Origin: Ginglymostoma cirratum
Lineage: Eukaryota
Direction: 5' to 3'
Length of the DNA stretch: 64,000 bases
Assembly: GCA_024137785.1 (NCBI GenBank)
Contig: JAHRHZ010000099.1
Coordinates: forward strand, 4,156,384 to 4,220,383
The notes under the pieces were generated by a model. It was given only the letters and a program-made list of their open reading frames with translations, did no database searches and was not told the origin of the DNA. A program made the translations under genes and the position numbers. This document shows, in pieces, positions 475 through 58,304 of the stretch. How positions within the stretch are numbered: position 1 is the first letter of the stretch; each line of letters begins with the position of its first letter.

Positions 475-640
475 AAAACAGAAATTGCTGAAAAATCTCA
501 GCAGATCTGCCAGCTGATGCCAGATTAGAGTTAACGAAACATTAACTCTGATTTCTCTCCACAGCTGCTGCCAGATCTGCTGAGATTTTTCAGCAATTTC
601 TGTTTTTGTTTCTGATTTCCAGCAGCTGCAATTCTTTGGG
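475..640. mobile_element. PLE-terminus-derived hairpin element (ribozyme core deleted)
   Basis: Perfect 35-bp inverted repeat 475-509 / 572-606; same sequence family as the PLE termini at 17995-18125 and 18900-19040. Confidence 0.8.
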
Positions 641-693
641 TTTTTTTTTATTTAGTGTGTTCGTGATGTATTTATTTGATTCTTATTTTTCAG

Positions 694-837
694 ATGGATC
701 AAGAAGTTACCCATTTGCAACGTAAACTTTCTGAGCTGGAAACAGCACTTGAGCAAAAGCATGTGGAACTTAAAGCATCTGAAACCCAGAAGTCAATCCT
801 GGAACAAGACTTAGCCACGTATATAACAGAGTGTAGT
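694..837 (+). CDS. CIT: CIT exon (48 aa, [48 protein letters not shown]), phase 0/0
   Basis: ttatttttcag acceptor, gtaagc donor; matches mammalian [48 protein letters not shown]. Confidence 0.96.
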
Positions 838-959
838 GTAAGCAGAAGCTACTGTTTATTGAACTGTGTCTAAGGACGATATTCAGATTACTTCAGCTTG
901 TTCTAGATTTTAAACACCTCTAATTTTCCTGGGTGACATGACCATTATCATGGCATCAT

Positions 960-1160
960 GTCCCTCAACCCTAACTTTGGAAGTCTTTCTTTCTACTCTT
1001 GTTTAAGGTGCTCCTTTAAAATTTATCTGTCTGGCCAAACTTTGGGTACCTTTCTCACATCATATTGTGTTGCTTGGTAGCAAATTTTATCCGACAATGC
1101 TTTCATTAAATATCTTGATAATTTTGCTATGTTAAAAATGCTGTATATCTAAGTGTAATC
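960..1160 (+). mobile_element. L2-type LINE 3' end fragment, highly decayed
   Basis: Reverse complement resembles the element at 42500-43040; typical L2 tail pattern. Confidence 0.5.
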
Positions 1161-2874
1161 TATTTTATTCATAAACAAAAATAGAAAGTATGTGTAGGAC
1201 TGATGTACGTTTTTAAACATCGTCAGGAAAAATATTGAATTTTTGATACAAACTGAACCAGTGTTGGTTGGCTCCGTTTGTCTTGCCGTGGACTGAAATG
1301 TTTCTCTTTAACTTGTTTACCCCATATGCTTTGTATCAGTATAATTACATTAATCTAGTGGACTTTATTACCACAATGCAAATATTTGTTGCTTAATGAC
1401 AAAATGTTGACTTTGTCCTTCTTTTATTCTCCCTTATTTCCTGAACGTTATTTACAATGCTATGTATAAAAGCTATGATTTCATGGCATCATCAATGCTC
1501 AGGTACCTCACCCCAGTGATTCTCCTATATGAACTTTGACAGTGATTAACAATAGTCTATTCAAATATGAAGAGCCACTATAGTAGAGCTTGATCTTTCT
1601 CTTGGGCACGGTTTTCCCAAAGTCTGTTTAACCTTTATATAAAATGGAAGCACAATTTTTTTTTTCTAACCGAATTAATATTTTGATTATATCAAATCCT
1701 CTCTGGGATTACCAGACTCGGCGCGAAGTTAGGAATTGAACGGGGGCACTTTTTGTCTGAAAAGTTTTATTGCATAGCATGCAGTGAATTTAGTGCAAAT
1801 TTAGACTCAGCTTTCCAAAGCAACTTCTGTCAATATTATTACCTATTAAGCTTTAAGAACAGTGGACTTTTATTGCAATGTCTACTAGCTTAGCATTTCA
1901 GTCCTGAGTGCCCATTTCAATTTAATGAATGGTTGCTGTTATTAGTGTATTCACTTGTCAGATCTGATCTAAAGAAGTCTGAAAGGGTAAATCTTCAACT
2001 GCAGGTCAAGAAGAAAACTAAGCTCAGGAATGCCTGGGGAACACATAAGATTTACATGTCCACCTTATTCCAGGATACTTTTAATTGACTGATTAGTTGG
2101 CACCTATTACAGGACCTACTACCTTGCTTGGGTGTTTGGTTTGATGACTTAAATAGTGGTTGTAATAATTAGGGCTAGAAAGGGGACATTAAATAAATAT
2201 TGGTTGTGAGGGAGAAGGTTGTGTGAAAGGAGTTTTGGTAGGTTAGAGGGAAAAGACAAGGCAATAGTTCTGGGAAGTGATAATGTTAATAGTAACCGGA
2301 GTGTGACCGGAGGAACGGAATGTACAAATGTAAGAGTAGATGTGTCGGAAAGTACGGTCAGAGTAGTATAACAGCTGTTTGTTTTCATTTTTGTGCTTTT
2401 TAAAATTGTAGACTGAAATGCGAATGAGGTATTTTAAAAGCCAAAATTGGATGTACGCTTTTAAAAGCGAGTAACCTGATACTCATGGCAGCAGTAAGTG
2501 AAGTCAAAATGAAGTCACTTTATCTGAATGTGTCTAGTGTCTGCAATAAGATAGATGAAGTTGTGTCATAATTGAAGATAACTGGTTTAGCTCTCATCAC
2601 CATTAAAGACACAAGATTGCAAGGTAACCAAGACTGGGAAATAAATATTCCACAGTATACCACATTTAAAAAGATAGGCTTGGAAAAGGAGAAGTAATAC
2701 CAAGGATTACAGAAGATGATAAGTACAATAGTGATAAAGGATCTTATCTCGAAACATCTGGAAATAGAGCTGGTAGTATGGGTGGAGATAAGGAATAGCA
2801 AGGGTCAAAAACACAGGTGGGAACAGATTATAAGTTCCTTAACTGCCATATGGTTGGACAGAGTATTAGGCAAT

Positions 2875-2876
<2 letters not shown>

Positions 2877-2905
<29 letters not shown>
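2877..2905. repeat. Poly-T run (29 nt)
   Basis: Direct reading. Confidence 0.95.
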
Positions 2906-4899
2906 GAAGCTTTTAACCAGGGCAGATTAATAGTTGTAGGGGACTTAATTTTTTATAAGACTGTGTTCTGAAAATCGGTTTGTAGAATACTCTTGTGACA
3001 GTTTTTTTGGAGTGATATTTTATGCAATCAACACAGAATAAAGCTATTTTAGACCTCATATTATGCAATGAGGCAGGACTGATATATAATGTCTTAAAGG
3101 ATTTGCTAGGAAATAGTGATTACATTACAAGTAAACTGCAGATTAAATTTAAAACCACATACTCCAAATACAAACAAGAATCGTGAAGCCAATTGCATAG
3201 GCTTGAGGAGAGAGCTGGTGAAAGTTGTTTGGTGGTAAATAAATTGAGGGAAGCATTTAAAGAAACAACTCAATGTCCAGCAGAAACGTCTGCTATAGTG
3301 AAATAAAAACTCAACCAAAAAGATCAGTCTGTGGCTTACAAAGGAGATTAGATGAATAGGCTATTGATCAAAATAGTCAGATGATTAAGGACTTGGAGCA
3401 TTTTAGAAAGCAACGAGGGCCACAAAATAAAGTCAGTAAGGGAAAATATAGAATGAATAAAATAACTTAGAAAATTAAATTTTTAGAGAACTTACAGTAT
3501 CTAAAAAGGCAGAGAGTAGCTAAATATTGGTATCTTAATGGCAGAGACGGGATAAATGAGGAGCAAGGAAATGATAGTGTGTTTAAACAAATATTTTGTG
3601 TTTTTTACTTTGAGTACTGATACAAGTCACATGCCAAAAACAGCATAACCTAGGGATTGGGTAAGAGTGAGGAAATTAAGGAAATTTTATATCAATTTGA
3701 TACACAGAATAAACATTAGAGGAACTTGGGAGTCTGAAATTTGACAAGTCCTCTGGGCCTCTTGACCTGCCTGCTATGGTTCTCAAACGGACATCTGTAC
3801 AAGTCATGAATGCGCTAGCTGTGATTTTCCAAAAAGTAACTTTCTAAATGGTCCCAGAATTGGAAGTTTGCAAATATAATATCGTTATACAAGAAAGCAA
3901 GGAGAGGGAAAACTGAGAACAACAGGCAATTCAGCCTGCCAACAGTCATCAGGAAATTGTTAGAATCTATTATAATTAAAAAAACATAATAAGATTATGC
4001 CAAATTAACATCATTTTATGAACAGGTAATCCTGTTTGACAAATTTGTTAGCATTTATTGAGGTAATAAGCTAGACACTGAGGAATCAGTAGATATTGTA
4101 GATTTTGATTTCCATTAGGTTAAGGCACAAGGTAAGTGCCCATGGAATGACATATTAGCATGGATTAAAGATTGGGTAATGGTCAGGAAGCAGAAAATAG
4201 ACATAAATCAGGTATTGTCAAATTGATAAGTTGTGATGAATGGAGTGCCATAAGGGCTGTCAGCTGTTTAATGTCTATATTAATGACTTAGACAAAAAGA
4301 CTGAGTAATGCATCTACGTTTGCTGTGACAAGGTGGAAATGCAAGCTGTGAGGAGGACACAGTGGCTGCAAATAGATATAGACAGGTTAAGTGAGTGTGC
4401 ATCAAAATGGCAGATGGAGTGTAAATGTGAGGCTACTCACTTTGGTATGTAAGATTAGAAAAGCAGAATTTTTAAAAGGCATGAAACATATAAACATTGA
4501 TGTTCAGAGGGACTTAGGTGAACTTGTAAAGGAATCTCAAAAAGGTTAGTATGTAGGTACAGTAAACAAATAGGAAAGCTTGGTGGCCCTTATTACAGTC
4601 AAAGGATTTGGAGTACAATGGTAAAGATGTCTTACTATTTGTTGCAAATCCACGGGACTTTGGTGACACCAAAATATTGCATGCTGCTTTGACCTCTATA
4701 GTTAACGAAGGAAGTACCTGCATTGAAGGCAGCACAGTAGAGATTCATCAGATCGGTGCCTAGGATATAAAGGTTGTCCAATGATAACAGGCTGAGTAAA
4801 TTTGGTCCACGTTCTTCCTAGTTTGAAAGAATTGGAGATGATCTCACTGCAACATTTACACATGCAACATGTTTCAAGATTTGAAGGGCGTGATAGTTA

Positions 4900-5221
4900 G
4901 AGTTCTCATAGTCCCAGAAGACGATAGGGCTGCTCCCTCATTAGAGAGAGTTGGTTGGGCATTTAACTTGAGGGTCACCATGCATCAGGCAAGGGGAGAA
5001 GTTGAGAAGGAGAGTCTTTCATGGAACAGAAACAAATTTCTGAAGAAACTCGAAGTGTGGCAGCATCTTTGGAGAGAAAGTAGAATTAATGTTTTGAGTT
5101 GAGAGACTGTTCTTTAGAATACTAACCTCCCTCATTGTAACCTCAGCTGATGTGAGAATGCTGACATCACATTGACATCACTCTGTAACGCAAACCATCC
5201 ATCCAGCCAACTGAGCTAACC
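4900..5221 (-). mobile_element. tRNA-derived SINE (head GGTTAGCTCAGTTGGCTGGA on - strand) carrying a nested PLE-terminus fragment at ~5025-5118
   Basis: A-box-like head; second copy of the same family at 14365-14551. Confidence 0.7.
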
Positions 5222-5399
5222 AGCAGATACTGACAGATTGCTTCTTTTGGCTGGGAAATCTGGAGCAAGGCGTATGGTTTCAGGAAAAGGATACAATGAG
5301 ATTTTATTTACTTCAAGGGTTGGAATTCCAAGAACTATGTCACCATGCCTGATTATTGATATTTCACAATATTCCTGGGTTTTCTGATTGCCTGTCTGA

Positions 5400-5582
<183 letters not shown>

Positions 5583-5624
5583 TAGGATTGGAGGAAACTG
5601 TTCTAGAGCAGTTTGACTCAGTTG

Positions 5625-5782
5625 GGTTAACACAGAGTGGAGCTGGAGGAACACAACAGAGAAAGGGTCCTGACCCGAAACATCAGCTTTCCTGCTCCTC
5701 TGATGCTGCCTGGCCTGCTGCGTTCCTCCAGCTCCACACTGTGTTATCTCAGACTCCAGCATCGGTAGTCCTTACTATCTCT
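5625..5782. mobile_element. PLE-terminus-derived hairpin element with partial hammerhead (stem II + GAAAC)
   Basis: Arms acacagagtggagctggaggaac / gttcctccagctccacactgtgt; central gggtcctgacccgaaacatc. Confidence 0.8.
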
Positions 5783-6119
5783 GACTCAGCTGGGTATTCT
5801 TTAAGTTGTACTTCTATGTGATGAAACTTTGGTCATAGTTCAATCTCAATGAGTACATGTTTTCAAACCTGGGATATTCGCAATGAATTGTTCCTATGAT
5901 GGTGTTCAGCCCTATATTTTATTGTCTGGGTTTACTGCTTTCATACTTCTAGCCTCACTTAAGGATATCACCAAGCAATTATTCATTACAGTTCTAATAC
6001 TGAACAATTTTTCTGTCACTTTTACATGGGATTCTTGTCAGATGCTTTATATTGCACCTTTGTCACATTTCTCATAAATGTCACCAAGCATTGCAAAAAC
6101 AGTGAATTATTTTCAAGTG

Positions 6120-6560
6120 TGGTGACACAGAAAGCTAGCGCACAGGTGCAGCAGGTAATCAGAAAGGCTAATGGAATGTTGGTCCTTATTTCAAGGGTTG
6201 GAATATAAGAGTAAGGAAGTCTTACTGCAACTGTACAAGGTGTTGGTGAGACCACATCTGGAGTACTGTGAGCAGTTTTGGTCCCAGTTTTTGGAGGCAG
6301 TTCATAGAAGGTTTGCTAGAGCAATTCCTGGTATGGAGTGATTGTGTTATGAGCAAGGGCTAAACAGGTTGGGATTCGATTCATTGGAGTTTAGAAGAAT
6401 GAGAGGTGATCTTATGGAAACACACAGAATTCTTAAGGAACTTGACGAGGTAAATGCTGGCAGGCTGTTACCCCTCATGGAAAAATCTAGGACGAGATGG
6501 CACATTTTCCGAATAAAGAGGCGCCAATTTTATTCTGTGTGAAATGAGGATGAGTTTCTC
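6120..6560 (+). mobile_element. CR1 LINE 3' fragment
   Basis: VQQVIRKANGML, LVRPHLEYC, SLEFRRMRGDL motifs. Confidence 0.85.
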
Positions 6561-8205
6561 CTGAAAGACCAAACGGTCTTTTTGATGGTATTAATTGAGA
6601 GAAGCTCAGTTGGAGAATCAGCTCTTCAAATGCTGCCATATTTCAACGTGAGCCATTCAAGTAATTCCTCACCAATACTGAAAAAAAGCCCTTCACTTTT
6701 TTTAATATAAACCTTAAGGTGAAGTTCACTTACTGTAAAAATTTCTTTACCTAATCAATTATAAAACTGAGTTTAGATAATGACTCATGTAAGAAAAATT
6801 TATGTTAGAAGCAAGGGTTAATATTTTGCAGTATAGGGGAGGGAAATATTGAAGTATTATTAATAGCACTAGTGAACAGTTTTAAGATGTGGATGATGTT
6901 TGATGACATGTGTAATGACATTTTTCATCTTATCAGTGTAACGGGGAACACGGGCTTGGCAGAATTACAAGTGGAATTAAGAGTTGACTTTTAGACTGTG
7001 TAAGCAATTTGGGGGAGAAGGGCATTAAGGGAAAAATGTCCTGGATCTGGCAGCAATAATTTTCTGACGGATTGCTATAAACATTGGTTGATCTTTAAAA
7101 CAATTCAATCAATAAATTTATCCCTTTCTATTTAATAAACAATGATCATGACTGAATAAACAAAATACAAATTTTACTCATCTGCAAGTACAAAATCTGC
7201 TTCCACACATACACTGACCGTCCCCTGTTCTATTTAACCACAACTTCTATCAACTACTCTACTGTCTTTGACATGTCCTGTCAGTGTTCAATATCAAATA
7301 ATGGGTGTGCAAATGCTTATACTGGAAGCTAGTCACACATCTTGGTAACCTTCGAGATAAATCTGCGTTATGACTGGTTAAACCATGGAGTTACTTGAAC
7401 ATAAAGATTAACGTTCTAGATATGAGAATATAGATATGATCATGAGACGTAGGTGCAGAAGTAGTCCATTCAGCCCATTGAGTCTGTTCTGCCATTCAAT
7501 GAAATTGTGGTTGACCTGATGATCCTCAACTTCCCTTTCCTGCCTTTCCCCAAAAACCTCGATTACCTTACAGATTTAAAGGCTATCTCGGCCTCGAATA
7601 TACTTCCATAGGTTCACTACTTTCAGACAAGAAATTCCTCCTCATTTCTGTCCTAACCAGGTGACCCCTTATTCTGAGATTATGCCCTCTAGTCCTAGAT
7701 TTCCCCCATAAGAGAAACAACCTCTGTCTTACATGCACATCTATCTTACCAAGCCCTCTAAGAATCTTGTATGTTTCACTATGGTCGCTTGTCATTCTTT
7801 TGAGCTACAGTGTATACAAACCTAACCTACTCGACTCTCCTCATAAGAGAATCGCCAAGTAAACCTACTCTGGTCCACCTTCAGTGCTAGTAATTTTCCC
7901 TTCTATAATGAGACCAAAACCGCTCACAATATTCTAGTGGTTTAACCTGTGGTCTATATAGTTTTAGTAAGACTTCCCTATATTTCTACTTCATTCCCTT
8001 TTAAATGAAGACCAACATTTCCATTTGGTCTCCCTATTACCTGCTGAACCTGTATGCTAGCTTTTTATGATACATACACATGGATGCCCAGATTCCTGCA
8101 GCTTCTTCCAGTTAAATAATATTCAGCTTCTCTAATCTCCCTGCCAAAGTGCGTAAGCTCACATTTTTCGACATTATATTCCAACTGCCAAGTTTCTTCC
8201 CACTC

Positions 8206-8532
8206 TCAGAATCACAGAACCCGTACAGTGTGGAAAGAAGGCATTTGGCCCATTTGAGTCTGTGCTGACCCTTCAAAGGGCTATCCACCCAGACCCAGCA
8301 ACCCCAAAATCCCCGTAATGCCACATTTCCCATGCCTAATCCACCCAGCCTGCACATCCTTAGACACCAAGGGACAATTTACCATGGTCAATCCACCTAA
8401 CCTGTGCATTTTTTGGATTGTGGAAGGAAGCCCAAGCAGTCACTGGGAGAATGTGCAAACTCCACAGAAACACCCATGGGTAGAAATGAACCCAAGTCCC
8501 TGGCACCGAGAGGAGTGTGCCACGATACTGCC
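8206..8532 (-). mobile_element. HE1-like V-SINE, decayed
   Basis: Reverse complement of the V-domain (agaatgtgcaaactccac, aatccacctaacctg) seen intact at 29310. Confidence 0.85.
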
Positions 8533-8559
8533 TTTACTTTTAAATTCACTTCTGTGTTC

Positions 8560-9045
8560 TGGCGTGGTAGGCTGGGCCAGCATTTATTGTCCATCTTTCT
8601 TTATTTGCCCTTGAGAGGAGGTAGTCAGTTACCATCTTGAACCACTGCAATTCGCTTGGTGTAAAAATGTTGTTAAGGAGGGCAGGAAGGGGTTCCAGGA
8701 TTTTGACTTAGCCACACAAAGAATAGCGATACATTTCCAAATCCGGATAGTGGTTAGATTGGAGGGGAACTTGTAGGTAACGGTGTTCCCATTATATGTT
8801 GCCCTTATTCTTATAGATGGTACTGGTCATGAGTTTGGGAAGTTTTTTCTAATGAACCTTGAAGTTTTGCAGTCCATTTTGTACGTGGTAAACGCGCTGC
8901 TGCCATTGGGAAACAGTGATTTGAGGGAGTGATATGATACCAACCTGGTGAGCTTTGTCCTGGATGGCATAAGGCTTTGAGTGTCATTGAAGCTGCTCTC
9001 ATCCAGCTAAGTGGGGGAGAGTTCCATCACACTCCTGGCTTGTGC
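8560..9045 (-). mobile_element. 3' end of a second LINE family (CR1/L2 group)
   Basis: ccagcatttattg tail; homologous blocks at 22870, 41990 (+) and 53475. Confidence 0.7.
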
Positions 9046-9464
9046 TCAGTTAATCTGTCTCTATTCTTCTAGGGACTTTGTGTCTCACCACTTGCCTTTT
9101 ATCTGTTTTTCTGTCATTCTTCAGTATTAGCAATAATATATTCACTACTCTCATCCAGTCAGTAATATATTTTAAAATAGTTATGGCCCCTGCGCTGATC
9201 ACTGTGGCTCTCCACTAATAGCTGGTTGCAATTCTGAAAATGACCCACCCTCATCCCAACCCTCTGTCTTCTATTAGCTAGCCAGTCCTCCAAGTATTTA
9301 AATAAAGATTCTCCTCTCCATGAGGTCTAATTTTATTCAGTAGCCTAATATGTGGCACACAATCAAACACCTTCTGGAAATCCAAATATATTACATCACT
9401 GCTTCTCCTTTATCAGTCTTCCTTGTTACATCTCCTAAGAATTATAATAAATTTGTCAGGCATG

Positions 9465-11825
9465 GTGAGGAATTTAAGTGTTCAAGAAAAGTTTTATTAT
9501 CAAAAATACTAGAGAAGGAGCAAAACTTGACCTTCTGTTGAGAAATAACATAGGGCAGATGACTGAAGTGTTAGTGGGGAAGCACTTTGGGACCACTGAT
9601 CATCATTCAAATAGTTTTAAAATAGTTATAGAAAAGGATAGGCCTTGGATAAATGTTAAAGTTCATAATTGGAGTAAAGCAAACTTTGATGATATGAGAA
9701 AGAACTTTCATCCGTTGATTTGAGTAGACTATATGCAAGTAAAGGGACGACTGGCAAGTGGGAGGCTTTCAAAAGTGAGACAACAAGAGTTCAGAGGCAT
9801 CATGTTCCTGTTAGAGTAAAGGGTAAGTCTGGTAAGAGTAGGGAACAATGGATGAATAAAGATATTGAGGTTCTGACCAAGAATAAGGAGTCATATGTTA
9901 GGTGTAGACAATAGGGATCAAGTGAATCTCCTGAAGGTTATGAGCGATATAGAAACATTCTTTGAGGGAAATCAGGCGGCAAAAATGGGATACGAGATAG
10001 CTTTGGCAGAAAAGGTTAAGGATAATCCAAAGAGATTCTACAAGTACATTAAAAGCAAAAGAGCAGCCAGGGAGAAAATAGGGCCCCATAAAGATTAACG
10101 AGGTCATCTATGCGTGAAACCACAGGAGATGGGAGAGATACTAAATGAATACTTCGTGTCAGCTAGGGAACTTGGGGGAAATAAATATTGATGTCTTAGA
10201 AACAGTCCACATTACAGAAGAGCAAGTGCTGGAGGCCTTAAAAAACATAAAGTTGGATATATCTCTGGGAACTGATCATGTGTATCCTAGGACGAAGTGG
10301 GAAGTTAGGGAAGAAATTATAGGGCCCCTCACAGAGATCTTTCTATCATCTACAGCCACTAGTGAAGTACAGCCACTAGTGAAGTGCCAGAGGACTGGTT
10401 GGTGACTAATGTTAAGCTTTTATTTAAGAAAGGCTATAAAGAGAAGCATGGGACCTATAGCCCTGTGACTCTGACATCAATGATAGGTGAGTTGTTGGAG
10501 GGGATTCTGAGAGACAGGATTAACATGCATTTAGAGAAGCAAGGGCTGATTAGGGATAGTCAGCATAGATTTGCGCGTGGGAAATCGTATCTCACAAACC
10601 TGATTGAGTATTTTTGAGGACGTAACCAAAATGATTCAGGGCAGAGTGGTTGACGTTGTTTACATGGACTTTAATAAAGCCTTTGACAAAGTTCCACGTG
10701 GTAAACTGGTTAGTAAAGTTAGATCACGTGGGATTCAGGGAGAGATTGTTAATTGGATATGAAATTGGCTTGACGGTAGGAGACAAAGGGTGGTGGTGGG
10801 GTTTGTTTTTCAAACTGAAGCCCTGTGACCAGTGGCGTTCTGCGGGGATTGGTATTGGGTCCACATTTTTTTGTCATTTGTATAAATGATTTGGATGAAA
10901 ATTTAGGAGGTGTGGTTAGTAAATTTCCGGATGGCACCAAAATTGGTGATATAGTGGACAGGGAGGAAGGTTATACAAGATTACGAAGGGATCTTGATGA
11001 TTTGGGCCAGTGGGCTGAGGAGTGGCAAATGAAGTTTAATTTGATAAATATGAAGTATTGTATTTTGGTAAAACAAATCAGGGCAGGCCTTATACAGTTA
11101 ATGGTAGGGCCTTGCATAATGTTGTCGAACAGAGAGTCCTAGGGGTTCAGGTACATAGCTCTTTGAAAATTACATCACAAGTGGACCAGGTGGTTAAGGA
11201 GGCGTTTAGCACGCTTGCCTTCATGGCTCAGACCATTGAGTTTGAGTTGTGTTGTCATGTTGAGGTTGTAAAGGACTTTGGTGAGACCGTTTTTGAAGAA
11301 CTCTGTACAGTTCTGGTTGCCCTGCTATACGAAGGATAATATTAAATTGGAGAGTGTTCAGAAACGATTTACCAGGTTACTGGCAGAACTAGAGAGTTTG
11401 AGTTACAAGGAGAGGCTGAGACATTTTTCACTGAAACGTAGGAGATTGAGGGTGACCTTTGTAGAGGTTTATAAAACCATGTGGGGCATATATAAAGTGA
11501 ATAGCAAAGGTTTTTATTCCCTGGTGTGGATGAGCTCAAAACTAGAGGGCATATTTTTAAGGTGAGCAGAGAAAGATTTAAAGAGACCTGCGAGACAACT
11601 TTTTCTCACAGGGTTGTTCATATGTGGAGTGAACTGCCAGAGGAAGTGGTAGATGCAGGTACAGTTACAACATTTAAAAGATATTTGTGTAGGTACATGA
11701 ATAGGAAAGGTTTGGAGGGGTATGGGCCAAATGCAGGCAGGTGAGACTAGTTTAGTTTAGTTTTGGAAACTAATGGATGGATGAGTTGGACCAAAGGGTC
11801 TGTTGCCTTGCTGTATGACTCAATA
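9465..11825 (+). mobile_element. CR1 LINE, 5'-truncated, decayed ORF2
   Basis: LDLLLRN, YSPVTLTSMIG, SQHRFARGKSYLTNL, GLVLGP..FVICINDLD..KFPDGTK, WAEEWQMKFN, TRGHIFK; tail ctgtatgact. Confidence 0.92.
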
Positions 11826-12063
11826 TGGAATTGACAATGAGTTTGTCATGAATGGTAAAATTATGGAGAGTCTAATTTAGAATGAGACAGTGGAGGTGAA
11901 AGAGAATGCAATTAGTGATTTAAGGTATGATAGCCATAATTTTGTGGGACACAAATACAATGGGTTTGGTCTTTATCTGTTTTAACTGGAGCAAATTATG
12001 GCTCATCTAAGCTTTATTGTCAGACAAGTTGTCTTATGACACAAAGGTTGGCAGTGAGATTGT

Positions 12064-12175
12064 AGATATTTTCTAATCAACCTGTTCAGAAATTTTATTA
12101 CGTACCTCTGGAACTGGTTGGACTTGGACCTCCTGGCTCAGATGTAGGGACACTACCACTGTACCACAAGATCTC
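12064..12175 (-). mobile_element. Short (~115 bp) tRNA-derived SINE
   Basis: Reverse complement of the family copy at 24168-24284. Confidence 0.8.
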
Positions 12176-14551: not shown

Positions 14552-14596
14552 ACCCCCTACCTCATGGGTAATCTAACCTCATCAATACTGTTGTTG

Positions 14597-45087: not shown

Positions 45088-45275
45088 TTTCTACACAGAA
45101 TGTCTGTTTTCTTCCAGGACGTTTGACATATATGTAGGTAATGACACGTAGCTGACATATGCTTTTAAGGTGTATAATGTCTTCTTTTAACATCAACTCA
45201 ATCGAGAGTACACTGTTTTTATTACAGTAAAGCTGCTTGGCAGAATCTTGTGATGCATGTATTTTATTTCATCAG

Positions 45276-45329
45276 GCACACCGTGATGAAATTCACAACA
45301 AGTTTGAAAGCCTCCGAGAAAGTTGCACG
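45276..45329 (+). CDS. CIT: CIT small exon (18 aa, AHRDEIHNKFESLRESCT), phase 0/0
   Basis: tttcatcag acceptor, gtatgt donor; matches AHRDEIQRKFDALRNSCT. Confidence 0.94.
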
Positions 45330-45503
45330 GTATGTAACGAGCACTGAAAGAGTTTACACTGATTGCAAGCACTAGTATTGATAGCTTTTGCATTGTCATT
45401 TTGCTGAATTGTTGGATTGAACACGGAATCTGACTGCCCTGAATGGACTAAATGGGAAGGGAGTGCCTTAGTAGCAATAGTGCCTGACTAGTAATCACAT
45501 GTG

Positions 45504-45527
45504 GAGAGAGAGAGAGAGAGAGAGAGA
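45504..45527. repeat. (GA)12 microsatellite
   Basis: Direct reading. Confidence 0.95.
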
Positions 45528-45539
45528 TAAGTTGAAGTA

Positions 45540-47290: not shown

Positions 47291-49476
47291 TACACAATGA
47301 TCGCTGAACGTAATTCCCACTGATTAGTTGTAGATATTTTCTCACTAGAGCTTTATATATATATTTTATATAAAAATAATATATCTTAGCTGACCTTTTC
47401 AGTTGAAATACAGCAATCACTAATTTTGCAATTATCTTGACTAGCCTTGACACGGAAATTAAACTCCCTGACACATTTTATCTTCTAGAATCAGTGCTTT
47501 CCATAGGATTTACCTCCTGACTTCAACCATCATTAAGGATAGTTGCAAGATCAGATGTACTTTAGACTTAAAGTATCAATAAAATTTATTGAACAAATGA
47601 GCAAGTGCATAAATAACAATGTGTATTTTTACAAAGGATGCAGTAGGACCTTGAAAGGTAAATAATAAAAGATTGCAATTCATATCCCGAATTACTTTTT
47701 TTTTATTAACTTGTGAGATAAATCGGGCCTATTATTCCTCTCTACTGAAGAAACTGAATTCACCTTTGATAGTTTTAAAATGTTCTCTTATTCATTTCCA
47801 TTCATTCCAACTTGTGTTTTTTCTCCATCTGTCGTGGGTTTGAATAAAACCAAAATAACTGACTGTCACGATGCATAACTGAATTAATCTCAAGCCTGTG
47901 TTTTTGTGAATGTGGTGGCACTTGTGTGCTTCCCTGAAACCCACAATGTAAGAATAATTTATAAAATGTATTTGTATCTGTTTAGGTGGGTGACGTGAAT
48001 TTTATTTAGGGCTTACTTTTAACTGTACTGTGACTGGAGTTAAAGAGACAGCCCTTCAACTAAAGCTAGAAAAATTACTTCTTTTTATGTCACGTTGCAT
48101 CCAAGTATTTTGCAGTTGCTTTCAAGTTCCTGCTGCACCTTTCTTCATCCCTGCATAAAATAGAAGTGCAAAAGTGTAAACGTATGATTTAGTGAAGCTT
48201 GAGCATTTCTGTGCTGTATATTGATCAGCTTGAATTTAGTCTGGCTTTTACCACTAGAATTAGAAATACATAGTGACTGGTCAGCGTTGGGTTGGATATT
48301 TGTGGTACAGTGATTAATTTCATTTACAGCCTTATGAGGGTATGCAGTCTTTTTAGCTTCCTAAAGTCTGTTTTTTATTGCGGTATTGATGTTTGATTGC
48401 TAGATGGAATAAAACTGGGAGACATTTTTGGAGCTGGGGAAGAATGACTTCAGTGGGTTTTTTTTTTCTATCTTTTGGTTGTCTGTTTCTTGCTAGATTG
48501 AGTGGCTGGATCGGTCGGGCAGGTAGATCTTGGAAACTAGACTGCAGCTGTAAACAGAAAGAATGACGTGAGACTCCTGGGGTAGGACTAGAGAGATTTG
48601 GGGAGAAGATTATTAGAAGGCTTGGAAGGGTTGGGAGGAGAGAGAATCTTGGAAGCCATTCTTGGGAGGGTGGGAGAGTGTAGAGATGTGGAGGCTAGGT
48701 AATGTTAGGGAAATCGTACTTTGTTAAAGTCATTTTTATTCCCCAAAAATGACATACTTTCATAAGTAGACCCATACAAGAATTCACTTCAAGCTCTTCA
48801 CTTGCAGCAAGAATGTCCACCTTAATACTGACCAATCACTATTCAGTTCCATCTTTAATTATTAAAATTCAAGCTGCCCATTTCTTCATTGATATTTATT
48901 GCATATTTAAACTTCTATTTCACATGTTGATGACAATGGCATATAGCAAGTTCAGAAAGCAAGGTTCAAGTATTGTGTGTGTTTGGGAAGCAGGAGAGGG
49001 GTTGAAATTCTCCCTCATGAATCACTTGAGTTTACAGCTCTCTCTACTGTGGTCGGGCTATATGCATATAGCTTTGAAGAGGATGTTTCGTGTGGTAAGG
49101 GAACAGTTTAAGGGATTTTGATAGGATTTTCAAGCTTTGAAGTGTGAATATTTTGAGTGCTCAGATTCTGACACTCTTTGTGGTCTGGTGGCAATTTGCA
49201 TTCAATAAAAAGGAAAGGAAGTGTAACAGGTCACAATTAATTATTTCCTCAATGGACTCTGACTGTAATTGTAACTTAGGATGAGGTGGAAGGTTGGGAC
49301 AATGTTTGAGTTAAGTATTAACAATAAAGATGCTTTTTCAATAAAATGATCTCGAACCCAGATTTTATTTGAATAGACTTAGATGCTTAAATACGACACA
49401 GGCGAATGTTTTAAATATTGCGCGCGTACAGTTGAAAGATTGCAATGTATATGGGATTGTGTTGTCTCTGCAATAG

Positions 49477-49674
49477 GTTATTTCAGATCTGGAGGAACAG
49501 TTAAACCAATTGAGCCAGGAAAATGCTGAGCTGAACAACCAGAATTACTACCTGACCAAGCAGCTGGAAGAGTTGTCTTGTGTTGGAGATGAACGAGCCC
49601 AGCTCCGGCTGGAAATGGGCAGGATGCGCCAGGAGCTGTCCGACCAAGAGCTCCAGCTCAGTAACCAAAAACAG
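49477..49674 (+). CDS. CIT: CIT exon (66 aa, [30 protein letters not shown]...QLSNQKQ), phase 0/0
   Basis: caatag acceptor, gttagt donor; matches [30 protein letters not shown]. Confidence 0.95.
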
Positions 49675-49927
49675 GTTAGTACACACCTGTTGATTAATTT
49701 ACCTCTATGTGCTTTTCAATGTTCTATCTTTTTATCAGGCCTACTGATATAACCTTTTTAAAAATATTACTATAAATATTGATACAATGTTAATATAATT
49801 CACACATATATAATATCAACTATTATTAATTTAACATGTCTGCGTTGTACCACCAGAGTCTGAGTTTTTGTGCTTGGGTATTTGGGACAGCTTGGTATTG
49901 ACTTAAAGATTAGAAAAACTTCAGGTT

Positions 49928-51846
49928 TGTCAATTCTGATCCAAGCCAGTCACCTGAAACAGAAACTGAAATATTTTTTTGGGTATTGTTTATTAACTAG
50001 CAGTTTTACAACTCCTTTTTTCTACCAGTCACACTAGTTTCTCTGTCAAATCTACCCAGTCAATTAATTAATCACTTTGACCCTAATCATCTGCTTAACC
50101 ACTTGCAGCATTAATAGATTTTCCATATTTCTCTTCAAATAAAAACTTAGGGCTCTTATGGTGCAGTGGCAGTGTCCCTACCCCTGGATCTGGAGGCCCA
50201 GGTTCATGTCTCACCTGCTCCAGAGGTGTGCAATAATATGTGTCAACAAGTTGATTAGAAAAAAAAGGTCAGATAAACACTTGGGGCCCTCTTGTGGTAC
50301 AGTGGTAATGTCCATACCACCTGGTCCAGGATGCCTGGATTCAAGTCCCAACTGCTCCAGAGGTGTGTAATAACATTTCTCATTAGATTAATTAGAAAAA
50401 AAGTCACATAAAAGCTTTGAATGCAATGTGTTACATGTTTAGTGTACTCATCATCCCTTAGTCCCACGTCTGTTAGTAAGATTTTTAACCTGTGAGCAGA
50501 TGGGGAAACTGCTGATGTAGTTTGAAAATAATTAGACTTTTATCCTTTCAAATCCTATTTCTGGCTAGTAATAACACCTGCCTAATGTTTTAATTAGGGA
50601 AGTTAGGTCTTGTTAATGGATTGTATAAACTGTAAATCCACTGACAAGAACAATAATGTAGTTGTATTCCGTGTCCAGTTTCATTTGAATGTTTTTCATG
50701 ATTGAGCTAAAGCTTCTTGTAACTAGAATAATTCCGTCTGCTTGATCAGTACCACCACCTTCTCCTTCTAAATCTTTTGCATGATGCCTAATTTTAAGCA
50801 AATTATTACATGCTCCCTTTCAGACAATTTATTATCTAATGGTATTTTAAATCCGATCTAAAATCCCTGTTGATCATACCCTAGGCATTTTTGAGTTCAT
50901 TCTTCTGGTTTAATTCCCAACTCCTGTTGTCTATTATTATTGCCAAAGGAATCTCTATCCTCACTCTTTGTATTGACCCTTTTCGCCTATATCTGGTTGA
51001 TCTCATTACCATTACCATTGAAACCTCCACTCTTTGAGTTATTGCCAAATTTGATCCACGAAGGCTGCTAGGAGTGAATGATTCATCGGGAAGTCTTTTT
51101 TAAGCCTTCTGAAATTTGTTCCAGGAATATTTATTTTTGAAAATACAACTCTTGTTAATTTTAGGAATTTATCCACACAAGACCTTGGAATAGCCCAACA
51201 ATTTAAAGCCAAGCCTTGAATTGGGCATCTTCAAGTAGAATTTTTGCAGTTCTGCATCTAGTCTGTTAAACTACGTTCTTCTGTAGAATATTCATCTACT
51301 TTCTAAATTTGCCAAAGTCTGACCATGCCTCATATATATTTAATGGGTCATCTTTCTTCTACATGTTGCGATTAGTTTTTATTCAATTTCCAAACATTTG
51401 TGTTGAATGGTGTCTGTAGCTGTGACTATACTTTCTAGTGGGAAGTGACAGTGCCAAGCCCTTACCTTCCCTTTTTTCTTGTTTAAGAAAGTAACCACTC
51501 ATTTTTCCATTGAATCATGAGATTCAATTTCACAAATTGTTAATGGAAGACACAACCTGACATTTTGCAGTTGGCTTTAGCCATTTTGCTCTAAAGTAAC
51601 TTCAATTCTTCAAACTCTTAGTTTCCAATCTTCACCTTTAGGCAACCATCCTTTGCTATCAATATCAATTGGGATCCAAGCCAGCAGTGAGACAGAAACC
51701 ACAGCATCTTTCTTTGTTAACTGTTAAGTCACGCAGCTCTTTCTAGCTATCCATCCCTCCTCCTCCTCCTCACTTAATATCTACCCAGTCAATAAAGTAA
51801 TCAATTAACCCCAATTATCTGTTTTAACTTAGTCACCATATTTACA
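49928..51846 (-). mobile_element. Internally deleted, decayed Ty1/Copia LTR element (GalEa-like)
   Basis: Direct repeats ~49928-50116 and ~51663-51846; PBS at 51644-51661 matches initiator tRNA-Met 16/18; - strand QWKNE..GLALSLP..KKDDPLNIYEAWSDFGKFRK..FNRL..FKLL, decayed zinc knuckle (RMN..N..GMINR.FR.D.KYH...NC), protease-like IVLVSGFT. Confidence 0.72.
50150..50400 (+). mobile_element. Two tandem copies of the short tRNA-derived SINE inside the Copia relic
   Basis: Copies at ~50150-50262 and 50283-50400 with A box tggtgcagtgg and B box gttca.gtc. Confidence 0.85.
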
Positions 51847-52138
51847 GGGATAACCAATTTCAGTCAATGTCCGTTAGTCTGGTAACGTATTGAGGTACTG
51901 TGGACAGTCTAAACATAAACTAGCACTGAGAAATCAGAATTAAAAGAACGGTGTATATTTTAGTAAACGCTGCTGTGAACATATATGGGAGAAAAAAATG
52001 TATACACTAGGTGAAAATTCAGTTTAGCTTCTCGAGTGCTGGAAGAAACCTTGGTATTTTCTACTCCATTATATCTGATACATTCCTTAGTTGTGTAGAC
52101 TTTTTAATGATTCCTCTTCTAATCCATTTCTCTCTCAG

Positions 52139-52332
52139 ACAATCGAGACACTGAAGACAACCTGCTCAATGCTGGAGGAGCAGGTGATGGATCTGGAGAC
52201 ATTGAATGATGAGCTTCTTGAGAAAGAACGGCAATGGGAAACCTGGAAAGCTGAATTTGAAGAAGAAAAAACACAACTTGAGCGACGCATCCAAGAAATG
52301 AAGAAACTACTGGATATTGAAAAGCAGAACAG
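52139..52332 (+). CDS. CIT: CIT exon ([34 protein letters not shown]...DIEKQN+AG), phase 0/2
   Basis: tctctctcag acceptor, gtactg donor; [28 protein letters not shown] conserved. Confidence 0.96.
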
Positions 52333-53249
52333 GTACTGTCATGTAGGAGGAAATTCTGCATAATGGAAGCGTACTGTACAGTGGAGCATTAAATGTATAT
52401 AGATGCTGAAGTAGGTAACATTATGTAAATATGTTATTAGTGTACTAGGTGATTAGGACTATACAGATGAGATGTGTGGAAGGTCATTTGCTACCAGAGC
52501 TATGTAGCCTGAAGTGTAAAAGCTGTCTCGGGCTAGGGTCTGTTGTTTTCGTTTGATTGTCCTCTTAGGGAGGAGGTGGAAATTGGAATTCGTGGCTGAA
52601 CAATGGTACCAGACAGCAAACTTAGTTCTGTGAGTTGTGTTTGTGTATTCTTCACAGAGCTCAGGCCAGCTGTCGCTTTTACCTATTAAAGGTTTTGAAA
52701 AGTCCAGGGTTTTTTCCAGTGTTTTAAATATTGGGGATTTTTGCTTGATCCTACATATGGATAGTGAAGCAGGAAGAAATTCTGTTTCCCTGATGGAGCA
52801 TCACAAATACAATGTGAATTGTCAAAGCCATTTCGTTCAGCACACAGACTGCAAAAGTAGTCATTTAAATTCATCATTTTCAATCCAAATTCTGTTTGCA
52901 CTGATATAAATAGACTGTCATGGCCAGTCGTGATTCATGTATGAATCTCAGCTGTGAGTTATCCAGTCCCCTATTGTGCAGAAAAGTCACGGTTGTCATG
53001 ATGGCCATTACTGATTATAAGAAATGTTCTAATGCAGCTTTTGGAACTGAAAGCTAAATTATTAAAACCTATTTATCTTCCTGGACAATTTCTTATTTAA
53101 ACAATTGAATGTTTTATTTAAAAAGGAACAACTTTCTTGATGACTGAGTTTAATGTTTTAATATATGTAATTTTAATATATAATTGGAATGGATGTACAT
53201 ACATATGGTATCTTTGCGCTTGCATTGCTTAAACATGGATATTTTTAAA

Positions 53250-54400
53250 AATTAGTTCATGGGACGTGGGCATTGCTCACAAAACCAGCATTTGTTTTCC
53301 ATTACTAAATGCCCTTGATTTGAGTGGCTTACTAGGATATTTCAGATGGTACTTAAGAGACACATTGCTGTGGGTGTAGAGCCACATGTATTCCATACCA
53401 GGTGAGAATAGCACATTTCCTTCTCTGAAGGACATTAGTAAACCAGATATGACTTAACAACGTTTTAACAAATGTATTCGTGGGTTTGGGCATTGCTGAT
53501 TCAGCCAGCATTTGTGCCCATCCCTACTTGCCCTTGGGATGGTGGTGGTGAGCTGCTGCCTTGAACTACTGCTGTCCATTTGATGTTGATCCACTCCCAT
53601 TGCTGTTAGGGAGGCTGTTCAAGTATTTCAACCCAGCAACACTGGAGGAACGGTGATATATTCCAAGTCAGGATAATAAGTAGCTTGGTGGAGAACTTGC
53701 AATTGGTGGTGTTCCCGTGTATCTGAAACCTTAATGGCAGTGGTCATAGGTATGGAAAATGCTTGTCTAAGGAGTCTTAGTAAATTTGTGTTGTTGATGG
53801 TAAACACTGCCGTTACTTACCCTTTGTGATGGAGGGAATCGATGCTTGATGATGTGGAGGCAGAACAAGCGGATACTTCATCATGGAAGATGTCAAACTT
53901 CTTGTGTTGTTGGAGCTGCACTCATCAGACGAATGTATCATCATGCTCCTGACTTCTGTCTTGTAGGTGGTGGACATGCTTTAAGAAATCAGAGAAAATC
54001 CCTAGATGCTGACCTGTTCCTGTAGCCACAAAATTTATGTGACTAGTCTTGTTCAATTTTGGTCAATACTAACCCCCAGGATGTTATTGGGAGATCCAAT
54101 AACAGCGAGGCCATTACGTTTCATGGGAGGTAATTAGATTTTTCTTATTGGAGATTATCATTGCCTGGCACTTGAGTGGTGTGAATGTTAATAGCCATTT
54201 GTCAGCTGGCAATTGACAGTAGTTGCACAGCCTCTGCAGCTGAGACTAGATTCAATTCCAGATTTTCCTACCTGTTTCAGAGGTGTGCGATAACATCTCT
54301 GAAAAGGTTGCTTAGAAAAGTTAGATTTGAATTGATATCCTAAAATTATTTGCCTGGCTCTTTGGATTCCTAGTCTAGTGATAATCTCACTGGACACCTT
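53250..54400 (-). mobile_element. Nested SINE + second-family LINE fragment (53475-54190) + short tRNA SINE (54213-54320, +)
   Basis: Homology to 40715-41052, 22870-23650 and 24168-24284. Confidence 0.65.
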
Positions 54401-55026
54401 CTCCGTGTAAGTAAGATCAAGTTAAGTTAAATTTTCTGTTGTAACTAGACTCCTGTAAAATGCAGTAATTCCAAAATGTTCCTTGTAGTGATTGTACCAA
54501 TGTCAGCCAGCTGGACATTATAGAATATGAGTTCATTAATTGGGGCTGTTAATCTGGTCTAATCAAGGAGTCCTGGCTGACAGATTAAAAAGAGGAGGTC
54601 AGAGATTCTGACAATCTGGGTGCTGACTCTGTTGAAGCTTTGCTAGAGTCAACGACTTTCCACGTGTAAATATACGGTGTCTTAGTGACGACAGAATACT
54701 GGCTATGTGGAGCTGTTTCAGTGGCGACGAGAGTAAAGCACTTTCCTGAAGAAAGTCACTCACAACAGTCATCTTTGAGTTGGTAGAAGAATTTCTTGCA
54801 TTTTGCAGTTATTTGGGAAACTTGACTTGTTTGACCTTGCCATCAAAGACTGGGCCCAGTATGTTGAAAGAATGCATCATTATTTCTAGGCAAACAACAT
54901 TGGGGCAGATGAAAAGCAACAAGTAATTCTCCTGACAGCCGTGGACCTGCAGCTTTTTCTGTTATTAGGAGCCTACCATTTCCTCAGGCACCAGATACTG
55001 AAACCTTTGAAGAATTGACAAATTTA

Positions 55027-55230
55027 TAGAATCATAGAATCCCTACAGTGTGGAAGCAGGCCATTCTGCCCATCAAGTCTACATCAATCCTCCAAAGAGC
55101 ATCTCACCCAGACCCAGCCCCCTAAAATATCTCTGTAACCACGCATATAATATGGCTAATCCACCTATGTTGCACACCCCTAGACACTATGGACAATTTT
55201 AGCATGGTCGATCAACCTAACCACATCCTT
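55027..55230 (-). mobile_element. 5'-truncated HE1-like SINE inserted in the Gypsy gag
   Basis: 6-bp TSD aattta at 55021-55026 and 55231-55236; (atagaatc) tail. Confidence 0.85.
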
Positions 55231-58172
55231 AATTTAGTTATGGAATATAACAAACCCAAGCCTCCTTTAATTCTGAGACACTATCATTTTTACTTGGCAA
55301 TTTAAGAAACCAGGAGAAATCAGTGTCAGGATTTTTGACTAGGTTAAGATGACTGTCCGAGGCATATGACTTCGATTTATTCCTTAATGAGATGGTTAGA
55401 GACCAGTTGGCATGTGGGATTAATGATGTAACTATGCAAAAGCTTCTGCTAGCTGAAGCCCAACTGGACTTTAAGCAGGCACTAAAACTGGCTTTGTTAT
55501 GGGAAAATACAGCAAATGGAGCACATGAGCTGCAGGGTATTCTGATGGAAGTGGACACCCTCACCAGTCCGACTGAGCTTGAGGTACACCACTAGAGTGA
55601 AGGCAATTGCATTGCTTCACTCGGGACGTAGACTGAACAGAGGGACTTTAGGTCAGCCCGCAGCAAAACTCCAAAACAAAGCCAAACCTTGACCAAAGGA
55701 TTCAAATTTTCTTCGGCATCTGAAGCAGCAGGGAACCTTCATAGATTAAGGGTACGATTTCTGTTCTGATCTCTTGCGAAAAGAAACTGGCTCAGTTCCC
55801 AATGCTTGTAGTAAAAGGTTCAGGCTCAAACTTGATAGGGTGAAATTGGTTGAGAGAGATTCAACTTAACTGGCTCAACATTTTCCTATTAGAAAATGGC
55901 TCCCTTAATGAATCCTAACTAAATGTCCTGGAAGACTTTCGGGAAGTCTGGGGTCTGTCAAAAGAGCCAAGGCCACCTTGCATGTTGACCAGGAAACAAT
56001 TCCACTATTCTGCAAAGCCTGCCTAGTGCAATTAGTGCCAGGAATCAGAAGGCTAGAAAGTGAAAGAATCATCAAACCATCCAGTTTGCGGAATGGGTAG
56101 CACCAGTCATACTGATTTTGAAGCAGACGGGTTGATTCACCTTTGTGGGGATTTTAAGCAAGCGGTAAACTGTTTTTTGCAGCTGGATAATTATTCAATC
56201 CCTTGGATAGAGGATTTATACACAAAGCTGACAGGAGGGCTATCCTTCACAGAACTGGACATAAGCCACGCTTATTTGCAAATGCGTTTAGATGAGGATT
56301 CCTAGAAGTATGCTACAATTAATATGCATCAGAGTTTGTACCAATATACAAGACTGCCGTTTGAGGTATTGTCAACCTGTGCAATTTTTCAGTGGATGAT
56401 GGAGAACATTTTGCAAGGTCTACCTCACGTCGCCATTTATTTAGATGATGTGCTAATAACTGGGAAGACTAATAGGGCGCACTTGGAGAACTTGGACATA
56501 GGTAGACACCCACTTCAGAAAAAGGTCTAAGGACAAAGAAGGGAGAAATGCATGTTCTAGGCACCCCAAGTGACCTACTTGGGCTACAGAATCGACAAGA
56601 CCAGGTTACACCTGTTGGAAGACAAAGTGAAGATGATCAAAATGCCCCGCCTCCCATGTCTCTCCAGGAGTTTAGGTCATTACTTGGCCTGGTAAATTAT
56701 TATAGAAAGTTCATACATAACCTGCCTCTACCCTTTGGCATTTGCATCAACCCCAAAAAAAGGGTCAGCCTTGGAAATGGTCACGTAGCCAAACCAAAGC
56801 TTTCAGTGCAGTGAAGAAATAGCAATCATCCTCTGAAGTGTTAGCACACGACAATCCCAAGCGAGATCTCGTATTGACATGCGATGCCACCCTGTACAGC
56901 ATCAGTTGGTATTAGTTCATGATTGTCTATACATCCAGGACCTTTGGCTAATGCAGAGCATAAATACATCCAGATCGAGAGAGGATTGGCGGTCATATTT
57001 GAAGTCAGGAAGTTCTACTAATACCTTTTATGGATGAAAATTGGTGATAATAACAGATCACAAACACCTATGAGGTATGCTTAGAGGACAAGGCAGTGCT
57101 GCCCATAGCTTCAGGCCAGATTCAGCGGTAGGGTCTAATATTAAGTGTGTATAATTACAAGTTGGAACACTGACTAGGAGGCCAAGTAGCAAATGCAGAT
57201 ACATTAAGCCACCTCCCATTGGCAGGTACACCACCAGTCGTACCACCAATGGAAGAGTCTGTAATGGTTTTAAATTTTCTGGGCACACTTCCAGTCACAG
57301 CTGCCAATATCAGACTTTAGATGCAGATAGATTCGGTCCTGTCAAAACTGAAAGAGGTAGAGGTGTTGGGAAACCAAAGGACCATCACAACCAGAATTGA
57401 AACCTTTTCTGGATCTGGAGAGACCAGATCACAATAGAGGATGGCATATTGCTATGGGGAGCAAGAGTGATTGTCCTGAGCAAAGGTTGCCACTGGCTGA
57501 ACTCCGCCAGGGTCATCCAGGGGTCTCCAAAATGGAGATGTTATGTCTTATGGCCAGCCTTAGATGCAGGCCTGGTGGGCAGTGCCCAGAGTACCAACAA
57601 GGACAAAAATTACCATCAGCAGCTCCCCCACATCCATAGGAATGAGTGGGTAAACCTTAAACTCTGTTGCACGTTCACTGTGCAGGTCCTTTCGTGGATC
57701 AATGTTCTTCTTCATCGTAAATGTCCATTCAGTGGTTAGACTTGCATAAGAGTCCATTTGTCAAACACAGGGATGACCATTGTAAAACTACATGTATTCA
57801 GAAAGGTGCATGGGCTCCCCGAAGTGTTGTCACAGATAACAGGTCTTTATTTACCAACAGGGAATTTGAGTATTTCCTCAGGTTGAATTGGGTTTGACAT
57901 AGAAGGACAGCTCCATACCATGCATCATCCAATGGTCTGGCAGAAAGAGCAGTCCAAACTTTGAAGGCAGACTTGATGAAACAACCTACAGCTTCACTAA
58001 ATATCAAATTGTCCCGGTTCCTATAGGAGCCATCCCACGTATAACCTAAGTGATAGCACTACCAAAGTTGCTAATGGGAAAAGACTCTGCACCAGGTTAA
58101 ATCTGACATTCCCAGGTGCTAGTGTCAGAGAGACTGATGACTATAGAGCATGAAGTTTGCTGCAGGAATCAT

Positions 58173-58304
58173 GATTTCTGATGAAGAGTCTAGGCCCGAA
58201 ACGTCAAGTTTTCCTGCTCCTATGATGCTGCTTGACCTGCTGTGTTCATCCAGCCCAATGCTTGTTATCTCGGATTCTCGAGCATCTGCAGTACCTATTA
58301 TCTC
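58173..58304 (+). mobile_element. Single PLE terminus with intact minimal hammerhead core, inserted in the Gypsy element
   Basis: CTGATGA-A-GAGTC-TA-GGCCC-GAAA-CGTC at 58178-58205, followed by the family body ttcctgctcctatgatgctgc. Confidence 0.85.

Follow-up and report, generated by a model that had tools for sequence, protein, structure and literature searches.

Background

Of all mobile elements, Penelope-like elements (PLEs) are those most closely related to telomerase, and the way in which they insert is unsettled. Several features of their anatomy have been published, including an inverted copy of the pseudo-long terminal repeat (pLTR), a tail at one side only, pLTRs that stand alone, and TATA plus initiator motifs (PMC3846280, PMC8557442). 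PLE pLTRs are also known to carry hammerhead ribozymes (PMC4209133), the minimal forms of which cleave weakly as dimers and not at all as monomers (PMC4209133; dimer cleavage is reviewed in PMC6765202). In vitro, the anole element PAc was found to cut and extend both DNA strands, with two internal start sites of reverse transcription bounding the tail, while ribozyme cleavage required the protein and was dispensable for insertion (PMC11167929). Finally, a PLE expansion in whale shark introns has been described (10.1101/443036). Here, we analysed a 64-kb stretch of the shark Ginglymostoma cirratum (contig JAHRHZ010000099.1, positions 4,156,384 to 4,220,383; "the window" throughout), in which an original prediction, made from the letters alone, had noticed abundant Penelope-derived repeats with minimal hammerheads, and we followed these repeats through the genome. 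The class of motif was rightly taken there as known, and the anatomy is published as well; what the analysis adds is the abundance of the copies and the statistics of their ends, which have mechanistic value. We propose, with a probability of about 0.7, that the short copies are dead-end complementary DNAs (cDNAs) of the terminal pLTR, likely produced by twin priming on one uncleaved RNA.

The repeats are terminal segments of Penelope-like elements

To judge from sequence, the repeats are 95-135 nt terminal segments (pLTRs) of endonuclease-bearing PLEs, in line with the Penelope origin supposed in the prediction. Positions are numbered throughout with +1 at the C of CUGA. Reading upstream of the repeat at one family A locus, we found a GIY-YIG region, a cysteine-rich linker and a reverse transcriptase (RT) with a YIDD motif, and among the 30 top endonuclease loci, 29 carry the family A repeat 280-350 nt downstream on the same strand (a strict rule leaves 28; one repeat starts at +6). 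When loci were picked by the 5' part of the open reading frame (ORF), 11 of 30 extended back into the family A repeat, and five of these 11 5' ends reach +4 or earlier, one of them as a partial tandem with the 3' untranslated region (UTR). As in endonuclease-bearing PLEs, family A has the same repeat at both ends, together with a partial tandem. Its ORF starts about 168 nt in, past the tail, and a pyrimidine-rich stretch lies upstream in 9 of the first 30 loci. In each of the families B, E and C, a separate endonuclease region lies upstream of the repeat, which links them at the 3' side only.

The single ORF with RT and, at its C terminus, a GIY-YIG endonuclease that characterizes such elements is present, since a natural 669-aa frame matches RVT_1 (E 4e-6) and GIY-YIG (E 2e-4). 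Its database relatives, of about 800-950 aa, have the same domains; whale shark (92%) and zebra shark (83%) proteins come closest, followed by those of bamboo shark and rays and then, at about 50%, of marine invertebrates. None of 12 long loci (85-94% alike) holds an ORF that is both complete and unbroken, and a PDB sequence search with the RT-endonuclease frame gave no match. Two ray proteins annotated as kinase-domain and chitinase-domain isoforms (P0117 and P0192) match the PLE ORF at 63-65%, which suggests PLE sequence caught in gene models.

A zinc-finger-like cysteine linker (CX2-5CxxC) was recognized by eye between RT and endonuclease in families A and B. Linkers of this type mark Neptune or Nematis (PMC8557442), and A and B would be of Neptune type, a clade assignment based on the linker motif. 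Family C (427 genome matches) has an RT and endonuclease-like frame without the cysteine linker and is therefore placed, by eye, in the Penelope/Poseidon type. Subfamily E has 251 genome matches. Family D (91 matches) is older, with copies 70-85% alike, and showed no ORF link in 20 loci; upstream of its motif stand CCAAT boxes and a TATA box (window 30430-30640; L194-L213), and the family may be an ancient repeat of vertebrates whose relatives extend beyond sharks.

Two further observations concern these families. PLE copies are nested in PLE copies at L002, L001, L004, L013 and L158, one nested case being a short foldback within the endonuclease region of another element, with a duplication of 15-16 nt. 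Moreover, a pyrimidine tract followed by CAG lies near both 3' end sites (+85..+118 in family A, +85..+115 in family B); it resembles splice acceptors, and sense copies might be exonised.

A minimal hammerhead at family level

The predicted minimal type I hammerhead holds at the level of the families, in which the core of CUGANGA, GAAA and a NUH triplet is conserved; the same core is found at three of the 14 window loci. Exact patterns matched 7,537 times in the genome for family A and 7,233 times for family B, with no match to the reversed controls, which is far more than chance would give. A strict form of the motif was found a single time in the window, and none of 100 resampled windows contained it. 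Stem III is replaced by the palindrome ACGU, as had been claimed, in families A, B, C and E; family D has AAGCUU and a stem II of 2 bp. Stem I is 4 bp long in B and E, starting exactly at -4, and 2-3 bp in A.

It had also been proposed that stem sequences differ between copies while keeping their pairing. Compensatory switches do occur between families: in stem II an A-U pair in E replaces G-C of A and B, and in stem I a C-G pair in E replaces U-A of B. The differences within the window are partly of subfamily origin and partly decay. Across 24 hand-picked copies, 88% of stem I and II cells are paired, compared with at most 45% in every slid control, which upholds the expected covariation; the covariation amounts to two subfamily-level events, not 21 independent ones, and therefore lends modest support to the fold.

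In an Rfam scan, no hammerhead family appeared even with E values as high as 5 admitted. Rfam microRNA-precursor matches, all below the gathering score, reflect the hairpins of the foldbacks described below and were rejected. In monomer folding, the hammerhead lies within 1 kcal (B), 3 kcal (E) or 6 kcal (A) of the best fold, values which say nothing on activity. In four assembled contig sets covering a natural tandem junction, no start or end point of a molecule and no clear splice joint was found; the loose ends of contigs at -3, about +93 and about +128 repeat the copy boundaries.

Copy ends and foldbacks

Arms of the repeats were delimited by local alignment (identity of at least 80%, free of N, off the locus edges), and arms picked out through the ribozyme pattern were excluded. 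The 5' ends of short arms fall at -8..-1 in 81 of 165 cases and within 4 nt of the cut site in 8 of 165, and a second set, tallied by hand, gave 54 and 4 of 102. The modal end is -3, about 32 nt upstream of the cut site. A TATA-like box stands 28-32 nt ahead of an initiator-like base at -4 in 57 of 68 family A copies, 4 of 9 of B and 8 of 13 of E, and at the same distance ahead of -18 in 18 of 22 of family C, the anchors including copies without an upstream part. Short copies have no such box upstream; starting as they do upstream of the ribozyme, they therefore look like end products. The original description of a mostly non-autonomous, ribozyme-bearing system gives way to one of ordinary ORF-bearing elements, of which the repeats are the termini.

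The 3' ends are bimodal, at about +93 and +128 in A, +97 and +133 in B, and +77 and +115 in C. The two sites, about 35 nt apart, correspond to the known 30-40 nt PLE tail, and the inverted 5' copy with a 30-40 nt tail at one end, typical of endonuclease-bearing PLEs, is found here, long inverted copies included. Neither the two 3' sites, nor the foldbacks, nor 5' ends upstream of the ribozyme had been part of the prediction.

We collected 67 head-to-head pairs and set aside four that extend into the ORF. Among the remaining 63 foldbacks, 57 have exactly one tail, one has two and five have none (p 7e-12 against independent choice by the two arms); in the second set 29 of 32 have exactly one (p 1e-6), and in blind blocks alone 13 of 15. 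The two arms agree at diagnostic columns more often than shuffled arms (0.85 versus 0.61 in A, 0.78 versus 0.56 in B), and 101 arm pairs are of the same family while one is mixed. Solo copies are of both kinds, 38 tailed and 50 untailed among 99. Flanking duplications, which vary from about 9 to 20 nt, accompany 47 of the 63 foldbacks and 37 of the 99 solos, compared with 14 of 300 random intervals.

Abundance

The very high abundance noticed in the window, 12 loci per 64 kb, was found again in two blind blocks, which hold 73 loci and 15 intact cores (stem II of at least 4 bp) in 277,780 readable bases; a third block, all N, was left out. This is about one locus per 4-5 kb. Scaled to 4.36 Gb, as an order of magnitude from two blocks, the number of loci would be about 10^6 and that of intact cores 2 x 10^5. 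Exact downstream patterns set lower bounds of at least 42,894 arms for A and at least 19,068 for B, and a first look at the PLE endonuclease region gave 147,242 candidates.

A proposed route to the short copies

The link to RT and GIY-YIG, the hammerhead motif, both 3' end sites and the fixed start of the copies are shown, as are the duplications and the single tail of the foldbacks; the remaining steps are inferred, as follows. With a TATA/initiator promoter situated in the 3' UTR of the copy upstream, the RNA would start 4 nt before CUGANGA, at the first base of stem I, so that the ribozyme would form the first 40 nt of the transcript. The element protein would make a staggered cut of about 11-16 nt, and reverse transcription would begin inside the RNA at about +95 or about +130. 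If this start lies in the first pLTR, the RT would copy back to the cap only and leave a short solo copy; such a start gives 95-135 nt only, and short copies would therefore dominate and end where they do. As this solo copy would be left without a TATA box, its re-transcription would not be expected. In the foldbacks, both cut DNA ends would prime on the same RNA, each start site being used once, and the joining of the two cDNAs would create a head-to-head foldback with one tail. The template would mostly be uncleaved, and self-cleavage, as a dimer or helped by a protein, would be unneeded for insertion and more likely to limit or reroute the RNA.

In L1 twin priming, two target ends prime one RNA, which yields an inversion between target duplications. 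The two parts of an L1 inversion do not overlap, whereas the arms of shark foldbacks usually share the same 5' segment, and strand displacement or a second RNA would therefore be needed.

Several observations weigh against this proposal. PMC11167929 reports the same start site usage on both strands, and the one-tail rule is therefore not given by that work alone. The Penelope promoter of D. virilis was reported to be internal and TATA-less (PMC2377424), and short copies might therefore still be transcribed. The modal 5' end (-3) is one base short of the predicted first base of the transcript, itself a deduced position. Only 3 of 18 family C short arms start at the predicted initiator, and in family D the TATA spacing to the anchor chosen is not fixed. 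Of the 11 5' ends of full-length type, two lie at +29/+30, which is the cut site, and some templates may therefore be cleaved. The concordance of arms is also expected from fold-back copying, gene conversion or the activity of one subfamily at a time. Lastly, the RVT_1 and GIY-YIG Pfam scores of the 669-aa frame are just below the curated cut-offs, and the GIY-YIG of family C was seen by eye only, with no Pfam match.

Alternative explanations

In the most probable alternative, the foldbacks would come from one cDNA, or from an antisense template, by self-priming or by copying of the folded strand, after which the endonuclease would trim one tail at resolution. This is the published reading of inverted copies (PMC3846280, PMC8557442), and it also predicts one tail, concordant arms and the head-to-head orientation. 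Three findings speak against it. Among 39 pairs of a long and a short arm, 12 have a complete untailed arm and a 5'-truncated tailed arm, neither of which contains the other, although a later deletion at the centre of the palindrome could mimic this; solo copies of either end are common; and the two 3' ends match the RT start sites of the anole system (PMC11167929). We therefore regard self-priming as possible, though unlikely.

A second alternative holds that the short copies are a self-propagating non-autonomous family, like short interspersed elements (SINEs) or retrozyme monomers, released by the hammerhead, perhaps as circular RNA, and mobilised by the PLE protein. Short copies of family B indeed far exceed those linked to an ORF (76 short versus 2 with UTR; 7 of 69 in the second set), family D lacks an ORF link, tandem retrozymes derived from pLTRs are reported in one chondrichthyan (10.64898/2026.07.22.740005), and one partial tandem of short units occurs among 30 family A loci (L011). 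What makes this alternative improbable is that the 5' ends lie upstream of the cut site and not on it, that the short copies are without the TATA-like box, that they have the same sequence as the termini of ORF-bearing copies, and that the window holds no tandem array of short units. A retrozyme array in the strict sense, with pLTR units head to tail, was rejected, none being found in the window and one partial tandem among the 30 family A loci.

That the hairpins could be foldback DNA transposons resembling miniature inverted-repeat transposable elements, the hammerhead layout being incidental, is suggested by the long inverted repeats with flanking duplications at six window loci, and is refuted, leaving it a negligible chance, by the link to an ORF-bearing RT and GIY-YIG element (in family A, and also B and C), by arms that are unequal in a fixed manner, by solos outnumbering pairs and by the variable length of the duplications.

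Returning to twin priming, a wider statement can be made tentatively, and with less confidence than for the short copies themselves: the genome would hold about a million fossil Penelope insertions and some 10^5 intact minimal hammerheads, whose ends would record an RNA start at stem I, an uncleaved template, and twin priming with each site used once.

The window loci and their host gene

A repeat is present at all 14 positions named in the prediction. Cross-matching within the window joined 12 loci, with 17 arms, into one superfamily, assigned to the related families A, B and E-like; those at 30547 and 36599 matched no other window repeat, as anticipated. The loci are listed below with the host gene (foldbacks are given without strand).

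472..645: family B head-to-head foldback; left arm untailed, right arm tailed; a central deletion takes out CUGANGA and stem II; duplication near 458-472 and 652-666.
691..59531, plus strand: exons of the host gene CIT (citron rho-interacting kinase), matching Callorhinchus protein residues 429-1095.
5024..5122, minus strand: B/E-group solo copy, decayed, core mutated.
5628..5784: family A foldback; left arm short and untailed (+59..+90), right arm tailed (+7..+130); without CUGANGA; duplication 5614-5627 and 5782-5795.
16461..16680: family A foldback; left arm tailed, right arm untailed; duplication 16449-16466 and 16670-16687.
16583..16610, plus strand: intact minimal hammerhead core within the preceding foldback; stem II 4 bp, ACGU palindrome, GUC triplet, stem I only about 2 bp.
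17995..18126, plus strand: old B/E-group solo copy, 78% to the B yardstick; CUGAUGA and GAAA retained, stem II and palindrome decayed.
18444..18578, minus strand: old B/E-group copy; CUGAAGA, GAAA and stem I retained, palindrome altered.
18808..19031, plus strand: old B/E-group copy; part of the upstream 3' UTR retained, with a CATAAA box about 30 nt ahead of the predicted start; core mutated.
23687..23882: family B foldback; left arm retains CUGAGGA, not GAAA; a flanking duplication was looked for and not found.
30546..30579, plus strand: family D hammerhead motif within a longer, old repeat; core intact, stem II 2 bp, AAGCUU palindrome, stem I 4 bp.
31650..31749, minus strand: B/E-group copy, decayed, core unrecognisable.
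32458..32675: family A foldback; left arm tailed, right arm untailed with GAAA mutated; duplication 32447-32460 and 32671-32684.
36599..36748: family C (Poseidon-type) foldback; left arm tailed, right arm untailed; CUGAUGA missing from the centre; duplication 36586-36598 and 36747-36759.
42559..42703, minus strand: old B/E-group solo copy; CUGAAGA, GAAA and GUC retained, palindrome altered, stem II mismatched.
58174..58307, plus strand: family A solo copy, tailed, spanning -4 to +130; core intact at 58178-58205, with one A-C mismatch in stem II.

The prediction had these copies share one layout, which was not confirmed: CUGANGA, GAAA and an unchanged palindrome with the cleavage triplet are retained together at 3 of the 14 loci (16583, 58178 and 30550) and CUGANGA at 8 of 14. 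Most window copies are decayed and have lost the catalytic core. At 475, 5625 and 36599, deletion at the centre of the foldback removed CUGANGA. Six of the loci are large head-to-head inverted repeats, and five of these six foldbacks are flanked by duplications of 13-18 nt.

With the Callorhinchus CIT protein as query, tblastn gave 14 matches on the plus strand, from 691 to 59531, none of which overlaps a repeat, and all 14 repeat loci are assigned to introns of CIT on this basis; the locus at 475 sits upstream of the first exon detected, and this exon encodes the middle of the protein. A window exon matches a Callorhinchus kinase at 88%, with named citron kinases ranking below. All three intact window cores (16583, 30550 and 58178) are in the sense of the CIT transcript, a number too small for strand bias. 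A coiled-coil-like frame at 55238-55591, between CIT exon matches and unmatched by the Callorhinchus protein at the identity filter used, is possibly an extra CIT exon.

Other repeats in the window

A SINE-like repeat, about 137 nt long and in some places arranged in tandem, occurs at 20165-20326, 24031-24398, 50135-50417, 54266-54319, 12034-12176 and 60231-60314; we presume its head to be tRNA-derived, and ARAGORN found no tRNA gene in it. Fragments of long interspersed nuclear elements (LINEs), presumably CR1, lie at 43788-45090 (minus strand), 10819-11317, 15221-15784, 35057-36122, 38778-39236 and 41182-41487, and the part at 44650-45090 matches RVT_1 at E 7e-17. The broken frames at 56506-57739 (plus strand) and 19689-20141 (minus strand), which we take to be remnants of long terminal repeat retrotransposon pol and gag, gave no Pfam match at E 0.01.

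Comparison with known systems

The short copies are numerous enough to yield statistics that small families cannot, namely a fixed 5' end, two 3' ends and one tail per foldback, and these statistics argue against a cleave-and-circularise route for most insertions. The twin-priming rule, if true, would explain the head-to-head inverted pLTR and the one-sided tail, long noted as oddities of PLEs. In practical terms, shark introns have a long hairpin or the remnant of a hammerhead at intervals of a few kb, which matters for repeat annotation and for false microRNA calls. In the literature consulted, we found no description of shark PLE hammerhead families or of PLE twin priming; the families may already be named in Repbase or Dfam.

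The shark motifs resemble the metazoan PLE hammerheads of PMC4209133 in their CUGANGA, the extra base before stem II, the G-C closing pair, GAAA, ACGU and the short stem I. The motifs described there are likewise mostly single and dispersed, and opposite-strand pairs were noted as well. The counts given in that paper are about 4,000 in coelacanth and 9,000 in Xenopus, with no shark named in the part of its text considered here; in the shark genome, two narrow patterns have more than 14,000 exact matches, and extrapolation gives about 2 x 10^5 intact cores, although the methods differ. The circular template proposed in the same work does not fit the 5' ends found here.

Compared with the known Neptune-type PLEs treated in PMC8557442 and PMC3846280, the shark elements are present in very many copies. 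The pLTR of rotifer Pen2a and of anole PAc overlaps with the start of the ORF, whereas the ORF of family A starts beyond the tail. The Poseidon element PAc (PMC11167929) belongs to another clade and was studied in vitro, and the account considered here does not tie its start sites to inverted insertions or to use once per event. The non-LTR retrozymes of 10.64898/2026.07.22.740005, present in one chondrichthyan, are like the shark copies in being pLTR-derived, hammerhead-bearing and non-coding, with many monomers; they are arranged as head-to-tail tandems with a hammerhead in each unit, whereas the shark copies are solos and head-to-head foldbacks.

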